Shown here piece after piece: positions 9,163-14,392 of a stretch of DNA of 64,000 nt. The DNA comes from Escherichia coli. GTDB taxonomy: Bacteria; Pseudomonadota; Gammaproteobacteria; Enterobacterales; Enterobacteriaceae. The notes under the pieces are model-generated. The model made no database searches and had not been told where the DNA came from. It worked only from the letters and a program-made list of their open reading frames with translations. Position 1 is the first letter of the stretch. Each line of letters begins with the position of its first letter. The stretch lies in assembly GCF_003334405.1 (NCBI RefSeq), contig NZ_QOWM01000002.1. One strand, given 5' to 3'. Position numbers and translations under genes: made by a program.

Positions 9163-10227
9163 CTAGTTATAGGTGATTTTCAGGATTACGTCTTTACTAA
9201 ACGGTCCCTCAACAACCGTTTCTGCCGGGTTCGCACTCAGTTCTGCCCTGAATGGTGCGGTGACCGAAGGCGCACTAGACGATGAAAAAGAAGCAAATTG
9301 TGAGAAGCGGTTAAATTCCGTTGCTGTTCCATCGTTATGAAATATCTTCAATAGCAGACCATTACCTATATCCAGATGGCTATAATCACTCAAAATATCC
9401 GTAGTGAAAAAACTCCCTAAAATATTAAACTGCTCAGTACAGGCCGCACCCGGATCTTTGGTCATGACTACGCTAAACGTCTCACTCACGCTGGTATTTT
9501 TAATTGTTCGGGAATTTATTTTACCAAAGTCGACAACGCCATCAGCTGGTTCCAGATCAACATTAACAAAGCAGTCAAGGACATGAATGTTATTTAATCC
9601 GCGAATCCTGAAGGTCAGATTTTTATCTACTTCTATAGCACCTGCTCCGCTCATACCTTTAAATTCAAGTGCTATATATTCGTCAGGTAATACAAGTTTT
9701 TTATTTACTTTATTGGCATTTTTAGCTAGCTTAATATATAGCTGCACTCGTACTGGAAAAGTTACTGATAATTGCGGTTCAGGACCGCCACTACAGACTG
9801 CGGGCTTTTTGTAGCCATTCCCGAAGGTTCCGGCTCCTTTTATATCAATACATACAGGTGCTGCAATAGGTAGTGGAGATGTAGAATCATAATCAACCCC
9901 ATTATAAGTTACACCGAAAGTATAAGAGTTTTGATTATAAAAGTCTTGACCTGATGCTAACAACATCATTATATTTGCCCATGCAGATGGGTATTCTTCT
10001 CCTGGAGATGGGCCTGGTAGTGCATTATTACAGAAAACATTCATAAAATATTCACTGCTTTGCCAGATTTTATCACCTTTTTTACCATCGCTGGGGATAG
10101 AGATTCTTGGTACGTAACCAATGACAACGGTATTTCCACCTTCATGTTCAGCATAGCAGTCCATTGCCCATGCAGGTAATGAACTAAAACCCATAAAAAA
10201 AGTAATAACAATTAACAAGTAGCGCAT
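9163..10227 (-). CDS. yqiI: Fimbrial tip adhesin-like protein YqiI
   Basis: 354-aa ORF with signal peptide (MRYLLIVITFFMGFSSLPAWA); last gene of chaperone-usher cluster. Confidence 0.8.
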   Translation of the reverse strand: MRYLLIVITFFMGFSSLPAWAMDCYAEHEGGNTVVIGYVPRISIPSDGKKGDKIWQSSEYFMNVFCNNALPGPSPGEEYPSAWANIMMLLASGQDFYNQNSYTFGVTYNGVDYDSTSPLPIAAPVCIDIKGAGTFGNGYKKPAVCSGGPEPQLSVTFPVRVQLYIKLAKNANKVNKKLVLPDEYIALEFKGMSGAGAIEVDKNLTFRIRGLNNIHVLDCFVNVDLEPADGVVDFGKINSRTIKNTSVSETFSVVMTKDPGAACTEQFNILGSFFTTDILSDYSHLDIGNGLLLKIFHNDGTATEFNRFSQFASFSSSSAPSVTAPFRAELSANPAETVVEGPFSKDVILKITYN

Positions 10228-10228
10228 A

Positions 10229-10978
10229 TTATTGATCTCGGTTGGCTACAGAAATATTACAAATGTTATTTACTACAGGGCAGTTTATTTCATAAAAACT
10301 TAATCCACCAAAGTCATTGATATAACCCACCTGAAAAGTTGACGGAACATTTTTAAACTGCGTATTTGCATAGCTAAAAGGGGTTACCATTAAGCTTTGC
10401 GTTTGTGGTAACATCGTTACCCCATTTGTTCCGATATAACCCAGCGTAACGTGATAAGGCATCTTATTGTTAAAGCGGATCGAACCGTCATTTCTACGAA
10501 TGATTTCAACTTTTTCGTAAGTCATTACCCCATCGTCTTCTAATTCAATGGCTTTTGGCCGCCAGAATAGTTTCAATGCGTGCTGCATAGTGACTTGCAT
10601 CACATTTTTTTTATCTGTTTTGGGCGGTATTTCTCGCACGTTAAAATAGAAGAGCGTTTCTCTGTCTTTAGGAAGTTGAGCAATTTTTTCCTGAGTTATC
10701 ATTCTTATTTGAATTTGCTCACTGGGATTTAAACGCACCATTGGAGGAACAGTGACAATAAAGTCACGCGATTTATTGCCTTTCGTATCTTCTATCCATG
10801 TTTGGGCCAGATAGGGCAGGTTTTTACTTTGATTAGTAAGTTTTAATGCTTCGCCTTTATCTGACTCATTCATTATGATACGGGTACGATCCGGGATGAT
10901 GGCACCCCAGGCAATGCTGCTCATACAGGAGAGTAATACTCCTGCTGCAATGATATTCTTTGTATTTAAGTAGCGCAT
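10229..10978 (-). CDS. yqiH: Periplasmic fimbrial chaperone (PapD-like) YqiH
   Basis: ORF with signal peptide; start chosen at second ATG (10978), which has AGGA at 8-nt spacing, giving 249 aa; track start 10987 also possible. Confidence 0.85.
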   Translation of the reverse strand: MRYLNTKNIIAAGVLLSCMSSIAWGAIIPDRTRIIMNESDKGEALKLTNQSKNLPYLAQTWIEDTKGNKSRDFIVTVPPMVRLNPSEQIQIRMITQEKIAQLPKDRETLFYFNVREIPPKTDKKNVMQVTMQHALKLFWRPKAIELEDDGVMTYEKVEIIRRNDGSIRFNNKMPYHVTLGYIGTNGVTMLPQTQSLMVTPFSYANTQFKNVPSTFQVGYINDFGGLSFYEINCPVVNNICNISVANRDQ

Positions 10979-10993
10979 TAGTTTCATCCTGAA

Positions 10994-13498: not shown

Positions 13499-13557
13499 CT
13501 GATCCACTTATCATTAATCCGTTAATGATGTGGCCGGGCGAACCCGGCCAAATGCGA

Positions 13558-14109
13558 TTACTCGTAAGCAATCTTGTAGTCAGCCTGAGCGTAAACGTTG
13601 CCCGGGGTGGCATCTTTGCTTGGGGATTCCATACGAGCTTTGAAATTCAGTTCCTGATAGCTGTTGGTATTGTTGAACGTAATTACTACCGGAGTACCTA
13701 AAGTTACTTCGCCGCTCTGGCTGTCCAGAATACGTACGCCAACGCCAGTGGCGCCGCCGATTTCAGTTTCTTTGGTATTTTTCAGAAGATCAGACTGACC
13801 CGTCATGGTATTTGCTGTAGTGAAAGTAACCTTCGCTTTTGAATAAGTAGTTCCACCCTGACTCAGCATGCAGTCCTGCAGGTGAATAGTGAAAGGTTCA
13901 GCCAAAGATTTCTGATCGCTTTTCAGTACGGTATCTGCTACTTCACCCAGATTTACAGTTAAATCTTCGTCACCTGGTTTAATAGAACATGGAGCAGAGA
14001 TAACTTCACCTTTAAATTTAACAATACCGTGACCTTCATCAGCAAACACGTTATTGGAAAGAATCATTGCTACGCCAGCAACAAGAAGTGACTTTTTAAA
14101 AGCGGACAT
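13558..14109 (-). CDS. ygiL: Fimbrial major subunit-like protein YgiL
   Basis: 183-aa ORF, signal peptide MSAFKKSLLVAGVAMILSNNVFA, fimbrial subunit architecture incl. C-terminal ...YAQADYKIAYE; first gene of ygiL-yqiGHI cluster. Confidence 0.85.
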   Translation of the reverse strand: MSAFKKSLLVAGVAMILSNNVFADEGHGIVKFKGEVISAPCSIKPGDEDLTVNLGEVADTVLKSDQKSLAEPFTIHLQDCMLSQGGTTYSKAKVTFTTANTMTGQSDLLKNTKETEIGGATGVGVRILDSQSGEVTLGTPVVITFNNTNSYQELNFKARMESPSKDATPGNVYAQADYKIAYE

Positions 14110-14392
14110 AATATTCCTTTATATAAAGATAAGTAGAAAAGAGAATGATTAGTAACTGTTATTTAAGGACTACTAATCATTGAAATATGATATTTTATTT
14201 TGTGTTTTTTATAAAATTAGTTTATCTAAATATCGATTAAGTAAAACTTAAAAAATACATTGCAATTATACTTTCAATTGTACTCATTCATTTTTGTGAT
14301 GGTTTTCTGAATGGGATTACGCGATAAGGTAATAGAAAGCACTATAAATTAGAGGATTAATTCATAATTTACAGTGCATTAAAGACGAATGT

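Follow-up and report, generated by a model that had tools for sequence, protein, structure and literature searches.

A complete ygiL-yqiGHI fimbrial operon in Escherichia coli, its AT-rich leader and a probable leader stem-loop

Here, the minus strand of positions 9163-14392 in a 64,000-nucleotide stretch of Escherichia coli DNA (the window) is identified, with near certainty, as the K-12-type 'Yqi-like' ygiL-yqiGHI chaperone-usher operon of the pi class, with all four fimbrial ORFs whole and closed by one terminal stop each. The full account taken as the best explanation, and in our judgement a very probable one, is of an ancestral operon free of IS2, an H-NS-bound leader and a leader stem-loop. 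An 11-bp inverted repeat upstream of ygiL is probably that stem-loop, carried in the mRNA leader and under weak constraint. The intact state of the operon is itself a common, already published condition and is nothing new.

Genes, locus and distribution of the operon

The first gene, ygiL (13558-14109, minus strand; also its RefSeq name), encodes a major fimbrial subunit of 183 aa with a signal peptide, its N-terminus MSAFKKSLLVAGVAMILSNNVFA being signal-peptide-like by inspection, and the product scores 384 bits against the NCBIfam equivalog NF007276 (cutoff 189). The uninterrupted yqiG (10994-13498, minus strand) encodes an outer-membrane usher whose Pfam domains, PapC_N (35-177), Usher (195-747) and PapC_C (759-811), span residues 35-811 of 834; the mechanical ORF extends to 13507 through a GTG upstream of the start at 13498. 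Downstream, yqiH (10229-10978, minus strand) specifies a periplasmic chaperone of 249 aa with PapD_N (27-144, E=1.8e-35) and PapD_C (170-226, E=3.2e-7) domains, and yqiI (9163-10227, minus strand) a putative two-domain tip adhesin of 354 aa. Residues 22-218 of YqiI match the solved chain 9rwe_A ('Fimbrial protein', 197 aa) with E=3.6e-122 and residues 228-354 give a weak Pfam Fimbrial match (E=0.0024), while a search of the NCBIfam families returned no match to this protein. All four genes agree with the RefSeq annotation of strain XJW9B263, in which none is flagged as a pseudogene; its sequence and that of the window have 2 differences in 5801 bases.

This domain content bears out the chaperone-usher reading given in the preliminary description, and its statement that all four genes are uninterrupted also holds, with a single terminal stop in each and complete usher domains. 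With its major subunit, an usher complete in all three domains, a chaperone of the PapD type and a putative two-domain adhesin, the operon is competent on paper to assemble a fimbria. Neither an assembled fimbria nor an expression study of the Yqi-like type was found in the literature searched; transcripts of Yqi-like operons are increased in some STEC strains (PMC6033998). The pi-class assignment is taken from Table 5 of the E. coli W genome paper (PMC3032704), where the entry reads 'ygiL-yqiGHI, pi, +, IS2::yqiG in K-12', and StdB, the top-scoring NCBIfam model for the usher, agrees with this class.

In the K-12 sequence NC_000913.3, yqiG is annotated as a pseudogene with IS2I inserted after nucleotide 71 and a GTTAT target duplication, in agreement with the IS2 disruption of the MG1655 usher given in the preliminary description. 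The same site is empty in the window, where a single GTTAT lies at about 13427-13431, and once IS2 and one copy of GTTAT are taken out, K-12 MG1655 and the window show 3 differences in 5801 positions. Comparison with the K-12 usher thus shows that IS2 is absent from the window yqiG, which has no premature stop and is whole because IS2I is absent. The window operon would then represent the ancestral, IS2-free form.

The K-12 operon is called 'Yqi-like' in the usher-phylogeny scheme of Wurpel et al. 2013, in which such operons belong to phylogroups A, B1, D and E (PMC3559732). Alignment with the empty sites of two E. coli loci that do not carry the operon (L006 and L007) delimits a presence/absence segment at 9152-14482: divergence starts inside ubiK and stops just past the yqiI stop, and a clean empty site is found at the locus in O157 and other genomes. 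The operon is thus part of an AT-rich stretch of 5.3 kb, lying between ubiK and glgS, that some genomes have and others lack. Such AT-richness and presence/absence polymorphism are as expected of a horizontally acquired locus silenced by H-NS. Of 5426 complete genomes, 3245 contain the segment in full, and IS-free copies are common; yqiG is also whole in E. coli W, B and Crooks (PMC3032704). The cryptic fimbria, which laboratory K-12 is unable to produce, is potentially expressible from this strain's copy, but intact copies have been on record for other strains since 2011 and the importance of this one goes little beyond bookkeeping.

A different identity is suggested by the gene names, which are shared with ExPEC adhesin I (Yqi), and by the like architecture of four genes and pi class; were the operon ExPEC adhesin I, its adhesion would already have been shown in avian and urinary pathogens and its receptor or virulence role would be known. 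There is next to no chance of this. The B2 Yqi cluster is located between ribB and zupT, whereas the window operon lies between ubiK and glgS, and protein identity between the two is 60% for the major subunit, 55% for the usher and 38% for the adhesin. Furthermore, ExPEC adhesin I is absent from K-12 (PMC2771359), and the Yqi and Yqi-like types are related but mutually exclusive (PMC3559732). The other locus and these identities refute the equation of the two operons. The proposal that this strain may make functional Yqi fimbriae consequently stands as regards the intact genes, but the Yqi that has been tested, ExPEC adhesin I, is the different B2 cluster. Functional data on 'Yqi' in the literature belong to that cluster and are not to be assigned to ygiL-yqiGHI; YqiI is only 38% identical to the B2 adhesin, although a solved structure now exists for its predicted receptor-binding domain.

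The AT-rich leader and its promoters

The promoter and leader region (14110-14392, minus strand) comprises 283 bp with 23.3% G+C, as against mostly 33-49% in the genes, and is 100% identical to that of K-12. The AT-rich, H-NS-type leader of the preliminary description is thereby upheld, since the identical K-12 leader is an H-NS-marked promoter region (PMC3946193). Genomic SELEX placed a sigma-70 promoter, TCGATA-17-TATAAA, together with an H-NS mark in the yqiC>ygiL spacer (PMC3946193), and a sigma-S SELEX peak has been reported in the same spacer (PMC5493296). An H-NS-repressed intragenic promoter has also been described within yqiI (PMC7229825), and the fragment concerned maps to window positions 9904-10053. 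Binding of H-NS at the promoter and leader in K-12 would leave the operon largely silent in laboratory conditions.

The SELEX sigma-70 motif was located in the window sequence at 14235-14207 (minus strand), from which the predicted +1 lies about 20 nt upstream of the repeat and would place the hairpin at about +20. A consensus scan gave a second, candidate sigma-70-like promoter, TTTATA-17-TATCAT (14187-14215, minus strand), whose predicted +1 falls close to the first base of the repeat; with one site found against 3.3 expected, this promoter is not significant by itself. Its -10 hexamer is TATAAT in the sampled non-K-12 alleles, but a -10-like hexamer stands at the right offset upstream of the hairpin in only 6 of 17 orthologous leaders.

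The inverted repeat

The repeat, AATGATTAGTA-N16-TACTAATCATT (14144-14181, minus strand), has 100% complementarity between its arms at 14144-14154 and 14171-14181, with 35 nt from its near edge to the ygiL ATG (14109), confirming the earlier claim of a perfect 11-bp inverted repeat 35-72 bp upstream of ygiL. When the 283-bp leader was shuffled 5000 times with its dinucleotides preserved, perfect repeats of 11 bp or more arose in 0.9% of shuffles with loops of up to 20 and in 1.9% with loops of up to 40, so that the repeat is unusual for one spacer and not compelling given all spacers in the 64-kb window. Conservation among carriers is mixed: other E. coli alleles retain 9-10 of the 11 pairs, but the exact repeat occurs in only 1315 of 3333 carrier genomes (~39%). 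The repeat is real but only loosely conserved. Within E. coli, 4 of the 22 arm positions are variable, a level of variation close to that elsewhere in the leader, where the alignment has a mean column identity of 96%.

The 56-bp element containing the repeat has a median copy number of one per genome and a maximum of two, which rules out a REP/BIME element or MITE; an invertible phase switch is ruled out by the same single-copy state and by the mere 16 bp between the arms. An Rfam scan of 8700-15200 (E up to 1) gave no match in the ygiL leader, and its sole match was the ribB FMN riboswitch at 14805-14953.

Folded as RNA, the repeat gives a predicted stem-loop of -9.5 kcal/mol. Nine of 11 folded E. 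coli alleles hold -8.9 to -14.9 kcal/mol, in some cases partly through an extra G-C pair at the base of the stem, and the other two are weaker (-5.9 and -2.8 kcal/mol). One stem pair shifts from A-U through G-U to G-C across the alleles and is the one pair returned by compensatory pair counting, for which the shuffle control was not significant (207/500). Locus L028 was excluded as an artefact: it is the E. coli leader in which C appears as T, as would be seen with bisulfite-treated reads. The whole 94-nt leader is not unusually stable (z -1.4).

The main support for a stem-loop comes from 17 YgiL-family leaders, comprising the window and 16 more drawn from E. coli B2 and from eight Enterobacteriaceae genera (the E. 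coli B2 Yqi cluster, Citrobacter braakii, C. koseri, Trabulsiella, Superficieibacter, [Enterobacter] lignolyticus, E. soli, Salmonella, Hafnia, Pluralibacter, Kluyvera, Scandinavium and one more Enterobacteriaceae isolate). In all 17, the 50-nt segment whose end is 30 nt short of the ATG folds better than its own shuffles, with a mean z of -2.2, as against -0.8 for 25 unrelated control leaders from the 64-kb window (Mann-Whitney p=0.0007 for the 17; p=0.01 for the nine leaders fetched after the idea had formed). The control leaders show some structure too and the excess in the family is modest, with p=0.013 when the minimum over three windows is taken. Alignment-free z-score profiles were used in place of a consensus RNA fold, as the latter predicted no pairs across 13 cross-genus leaders owing to too poor an alignment. 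Hairpin sequences are unrelated between genera, which fits RNA structure better than a common protein-binding site, and the genes upstream differ among genera, indicating that the hairpin goes with the fimbrial operon rather than with the gene that precedes it. The earlier alternative of a regulator site or a leader hairpin is accordingly divided: the hairpin has moderate support from the orthologues, but the arm sequence expected of a protein site is not conserved.

Chance offers a simpler explanation, namely that very AT-rich DNA has produced a palindrome with no function, for which the K-12 lineage happens to have 11 of 11 pairs, and this is possible, though somewhat improbable. The perfection of the repeat is allele-specific, as the carrier counts show, weakened alleles occur naturally and the covariation control was not significant. 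The 0.9% obtained for 11 bp also fails after correction for the many spacers scanned, and 10-17% of shuffles produce a perfect 9-bp repeat, which is as long as the uninterrupted pairing that several non-K-12 alleles retain. Chance is nevertheless opposed by the extra folding that all 17 orthologous leaders, the prospective subset included, show equally far from the start codon, and by the folding energy kept in nine of the 11 E. coli alleles. A DNA operator, at which a dimeric regulator or nucleoid protein would bind both arms at or just downstream of the start site and so repress or activate ygiL, is unlikely. DNA-binding proteins commonly regulate cryptic fimbrial promoters, the symmetry is perfect in K-12, the repeat has the predicted -10 hexamers on one side and the ribosome-binding site on the other, and both arms are altered symmetrically in the O111 allele. 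Yet a centre-to-centre distance of 27 bp between the half-sites is unusual for a dimer, the orthologues keep hairpin potential and not arm sequence, and no regulator is encoded in the operon. The 8-mer AATGATTA shows no enrichment within the window (5 found, 2.6 expected), and the 56-bp element, being essentially single-copy in E. coli genomes, is part of no regulon visible here. To our knowledge, the repeat fits none of the Fur, CRP, IHF and CpxR consensus sequences convincingly.

Because ubiK is co-oriented and directly upstream, and a stretch rich in pyrimidines and T, CTCTTTTCT, comes after the stem-loop, the hairpin could also be read as a terminator or attenuator that keeps ubiK transcription from running on into the fimbrial genes. 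We consider this very unlikely: a stem of almost all A-U pairs with a loop of 14-16 nt makes a poor intrinsic terminator, the terminator scan made no call at the repeat, and orthologues with unrelated or divergent upstream genes have a hairpin at the same place. A far better candidate follows the ubiK stop by 12 nt, where a 13-bp hairpin and then TTTCTATT (14336-14380, minus strand) fold with -16.5 kcal/mol (z -4.5) and pair better still in the sampled non-K-12 alleles; this is likely the ubiK terminator in operon-bearing strains.

Proposed role and comparison with known systems

Stabilising stem-loops at the 5' end of enterobacterial mRNAs are known from the ompA 5' UTR, and processing of the papA message is a related case. 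By analogy, the 11-bp repeat would be the K-12-allele version of a stem-loop 35-72 nt upstream of the ygiL start, formed by the ygiL mRNA in its 5' untranslated region and serving as a protective or processing-barrier hairpin, as in the ompA leader. We infer the transcription of the hairpin, the transcript start and the effect on mRNA stability alike, and mRNA protection by the leader hairpin is put forward tentatively, as a role that it may quite possibly have. Two hairpins in the ygiL-yqiG intergenic region (13501-13548, minus strand), GGCCGGG-TTCG-CCCGGCC and then CATCATTAA-CGGA-TTAATGAT, with no T-run, are a candidate intercistronic attenuator or 3' stabiliser; the fold of 13495-13565 has -23.7 kcal/mol (z -2.5). 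Together, the leader stem-loop and the GC-rich hairpin just past ygiL would tip the balance towards a stable message for the major subunit and away from that for the usher.

A broader proposal, which we regard as doubtful, is that YgiL/Yqi-type pi-fimbrial leaders across the Enterobacteriaceae share a position-conserved, sequence-variable 5' stem-loop that is a genuine post-transcriptional control element. If so, the element might, for example, determine mRNA stability or allow a ribonuclease or RNA chaperone to dock, and would set the output of the major subunit after H-NS silencing had been lifted, with the K-12 repeat as its E. coli representative. A real stem-loop would offer a handle for expressing cryptic fimbriae or for explaining the ratio of major subunit to usher.

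The closest known system is the ygiL-yqiGHI operon of K-12 MG1655 (b3043-b3048), which has the same ubiK/glgS locus and gene order and an identical 331-bp leader but, unlike the window, carries IS2I in yqiG. ExPEC adhesin I of B2 strains (APEC IMT5155, CFT073) is likewise a four-gene pi-class operon with the same order and an AT-rich leader, which has a perfect 9-bp inverted repeat 42-73 nt upstream of the major-subunit start codon, whereas its adhesion and glycan-binding data (PMC2771359, PMC8545135) are not transferable to the window YqiI. For the Salmonella Std fimbriae, StdB and StdC are the top NCBIfam models for the window usher and chaperone, and the scores of 695 bits (equivalog cutoff 1289) and 151 bits (cutoff 370), respectively, fall well short, indicating relatives and not orthologues of Std. 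The ompA and papA systems differ in that the window stem is A-U rich and only weakly constrained within E. coli. They resemble the window, where the stem-loop is predicted, in having a leader stem-loop upstream of the ribosome-binding site before a highly expressed surface-structure gene, and systems of this type also have a second hairpin after the major subunit gene, as does the window.

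The operon, its edges and its K-12 counterpart

Comparison with complete genomes identifies the window as Escherichia coli chromosome, in which glgS (8920-9120, plus strand) and ubiK (14393-14683) flank four minus-strand fimbrial genes: ygiL for the major subunit (13558-14109), yqiG for an 834-residue usher (10994-13498), yqiH for a chaperone (10229-10978) and yqiI (9163-10227). All four are uninterrupted, as the preliminary description held: each translation has a single, terminal stop and the usher retains the complete Pfam set PapC_N, Usher and PapC_C. The chaperone has PapD_N and PapD_C, and YgiL passes its own NCBIfam equivalog model (384 bits, cutoff 189). 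YqiI matched no NCBIfam family; its residues 22-218 correspond to the 197-residue solved chain 9rwe_A (E=3.6e-122) and its C-terminus has a weak pilin-domain match (E=0.0024), which together fit a two-domain adhesin. Also annotated in the window, between hldE and yqiK (5659-6093, minus strand), are ibsE and a paralogue, type I toxin genes of the Ibs family that are unrelated to the operon.

The preliminary description took the usher to be IS2-disrupted in K-12 MG1655, and in NC_000913.3 yqiG is indeed an annotated pseudogene, split after nucleotide 71 by an IS2I element bordered by a GTTAT duplication. Setting the insertion aside, only 3 of 5801 positions distinguish K-12 from the window, with 100% identity over the 331 bases that include the leader; the window allele is therefore the K-12 one lacking IS2I. 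The observation was accurate and its main interpretation right, yet the intact operon was already known: the E. coli W genome paper lists W, B and Crooks as "ygiL-yqiGHI, pi, +" and K-12 as "IS2::yqiG" in its Table 5 (PMC3032704). At least 80% of the segment is found in one place in 3245 of 5426 complete E. coli genomes. Other strains have their own insertions (IS1, IS2 or IS903B inside the operon) or an usher gene broken by a stop codon, as in comparison loci L003 and L004 (1803-4301 in both), where the usher is annotated as a pseudogene and the operon is ~96% identical to the window's; decay of the operon is repeated and independent among strains. Four contigs of Bacillota MAG, Collinsella MAG and Alkalicoccobacillus assemblies encode parts of an usher with 98-100% identity to E. 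coli YqiG, almost certainly as E. coli contamination.

In operon-free genomes the ubiK-glgS gap is only 34 bp, with one GC-rich hairpin common to both genes. The window diverges from these genomes between ~14482, inside ubiK, and ~9152, just past the yqiI stop. Codons ~67-77 of ubiK show many synonymous differences with the protein unchanged, while the amino acid sequence diverges past residue 77 (96 aa in the window, 99 aa in empty-site strains), such that the last 19 residues are distinct in the operon-bearing haplotype and the replaced ubiK 3' end occupies 14393-14482. This pattern suggests that the operon was gained or lost by homologous exchange with a partner already having ubiK beside ygiL, and not by simple insertion. 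Twelve nucleotides past the ubiK stop, a 13-bp hairpin followed by TTTCTATT (14336-14380, minus strand; -16.5 kcal/mol, z -4.5) is probably the ubiK terminator in operon-bearing strains; operon-free strains use the shared GC-rich hairpin in its place.

The ygiL leader and its inverted repeat

The leader (14110-14392) is 283 bp long and 23% G+C. For the K-12 yqiC-ygiL spacer, genomic SELEX listed TCGATA-17-TATAAA as a sigma-70 promoter and gave it an H-NS mark (PMC3946193); the motif falls at 14235-14207 here. The spacer also has a sigma-S peak (PMC5493296). Furthermore, Warman et al. (2020) described an H-NS-repressed promoter within yqiI as spurious and intragenic, its -35 and -10 elements being close to consensus (PMC7229825); the cloned fragment is exactly 9904-10053 of the window, plus strand, antisense to yqiI. 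The suggestion that the AT-rich leader is H-NS-silenced is therefore supported by the literature on identical K-12 sequence. A second predicted promoter, TTTATA-17-TATCAT, would start at about the first base of the repeat stem, and its -10 is TATAAT in the non-K-12 alleles sampled; for the SELEX motif, the predicted transcript would reach the stem after ~20 nt. Only 6 of 17 orthologue leaders have a -10-like hexamer at the corresponding distance.

The perfect 11-bp inverted repeat at 14144-14181 is exactly as first described. Perfect repeats of at least 11 bp with loops of up to 20 arose in 0.9% of shuffles of the ygiL leader spacer alone, which is suggestive, but not once all the spacers scanned in the preliminary description are counted. 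The element is single copy (median one place per genome), which excludes a REP- or MITE-type repeat, and an invertible switch is impossible because merely 16 bp separate the arms. A third copy of the arm core AATGATTA, at 14780-14787 (minus strand) upstream of ubiK, between it and the FMN riboswitch, is probably chance: with 5 occurrences against 2.6 expected, the window shows no enrichment for this 8-mer.

Conservation among carriers was partial. Of 3333 carriers, 1315 have an exact match to the 56 bp that enclose the repeat; sampled alleles keep 9-10 of the 11 pairs, and two natural alleles are weakened (-5.9 and -2.8 kcal/mol). Eight pairs are invariant and one shifts from A-U via G-U to G-C; certain alleles break the remaining two. 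Predicted RNA folds in 9 of 11 alleles range from -8.9 to -14.9 kcal/mol, some being more stable than K-12's (-9.5) through a new G-C pair at the stem base. The pair counts of the E. coli alleles were not significant against a shuffle control (207/500). The repeat is thus real, perfect only in the K-12-type allele, and constraint on the hairpin within E. coli is weak at best.

Leader folding across the family and its possible role

Relatives were chosen with ushers 50-55% identical to YqiG or major subunits 47-60% identical to YgiL, giving 16 orthologue leaders from E. coli B2, Citrobacter, Trabulsiella, Superficieibacter, Enterobacter, Salmonella, Hafnia, Pluralibacter, Kluyvera, Scandinavium and one further Enterobacteriaceae isolate. 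An apparent YgiL homologue, P0019 ('69% identical'), was rejected as the product of L028 (Logan assembly, SRR8137545), in which E. coli ygiL and its leader appear with T in place of C along their whole length, a pattern consistent with assembly of bisulfite-converted reads. The orthologue leaders cannot be aligned save for the ribosome-binding region ATAAAGGAtTA, but at the same position every one of them has a stem-loop, different in sequence from leader to leader. In sliding 50-nt folds, with z taken against each fold window's own dinucleotide shuffles, the stretch ending 30 nt before the ATG had a mean z of -2.2 in 17 YgiL-family leaders (17/17 negative) and about 0 at their other positions, against -0.8 at the same place in 25 unrelated leaders from the window (Mann-Whitney p=0.0007 for all 17; p=0.01 for the nine fetched after the idea was formed; p=0.013 with the minimum over three neighbouring fold windows). 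Upstream genes vary from genus to genus, which assigns the structure to the fimbrial operon. There is thus moderate evidence for a leader stem-loop as a family trait, of which the repeat is probably a local, weakly constrained form.

We propose that the repeat folds into a stem-loop within the 5' untranslated region of ygiL mRNA. Some enterobacterial mRNAs are protected by stem-loops at the 5' end, and by analogy the leader hairpin may stabilise the major-subunit message. Two adjacent hairpins also occupy the ygiL-usher gap (13501-13548, minus strand): a GC-rich one at 13545-13528, directly after ygiL, which could favour ygiL over usher message, and a second, CATCATTAA-CGGA-TTAATGAT, ending just before the usher start codon; together they may determine how much major subunit is made relative to usher. 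This pairing of a stabilising leader hairpin with a post-ygiL hairpin is our tentative preference, held at somewhat less than even confidence. Nearly as likely is that the repeat has no function. A DNA operator is unlikely, given that the hairpin keeps its position among leaders that cannot be aligned, which is more in keeping with an RNA structure than with a protein-binding site common to the family. Less likely again is an attenuator of ubiK read-through, as the hairpin that follows ubiK at 14380-14336 resembles a terminator far more closely.

Relation to the Yqi adhesin

The experimentally tested adhesin, through chicken lung colonisation and glycan arrays, is "Yqi", or ExPEC adhesin I (PMC2771359, PMC8545135), which belongs to phylogroup B2 and, according to its discoverers, is absent from K-12 (PMC2771359). 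Wurpel et al. named the K-12 type "Yqi-like" and described the two as related and mutually exclusive (PMC3559732). In the B2-type genome NZ_OZ040208.1 (locus L015) the ubiK-glgS site is empty and the Yqi cluster lies ~1 kb off, at ribB-zupT (3484-8456), the two clusters thus taking neighbouring sites that flank ubiK-ribB. The B2 leader contains a perfect 14-bp palindrome, TCAAACATATAATT-N3-AATTATATGTTTGA (8596-8626), 140 nt upstream of the major subunit gene with a folding z of about -8, and no counterpart of it was found in the window's leader. The B2 major subunit, usher and adhesin share 60%, 55% and 38% identity with those of the window, and the B2 cluster occupies ribB-zupT whereas the window operon occupies ubiK-glgS. 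The functions established for ExPEC adhesin I are therefore not transferable to the window operon, which should be called Yqi-like and not Yqi or EA/I.
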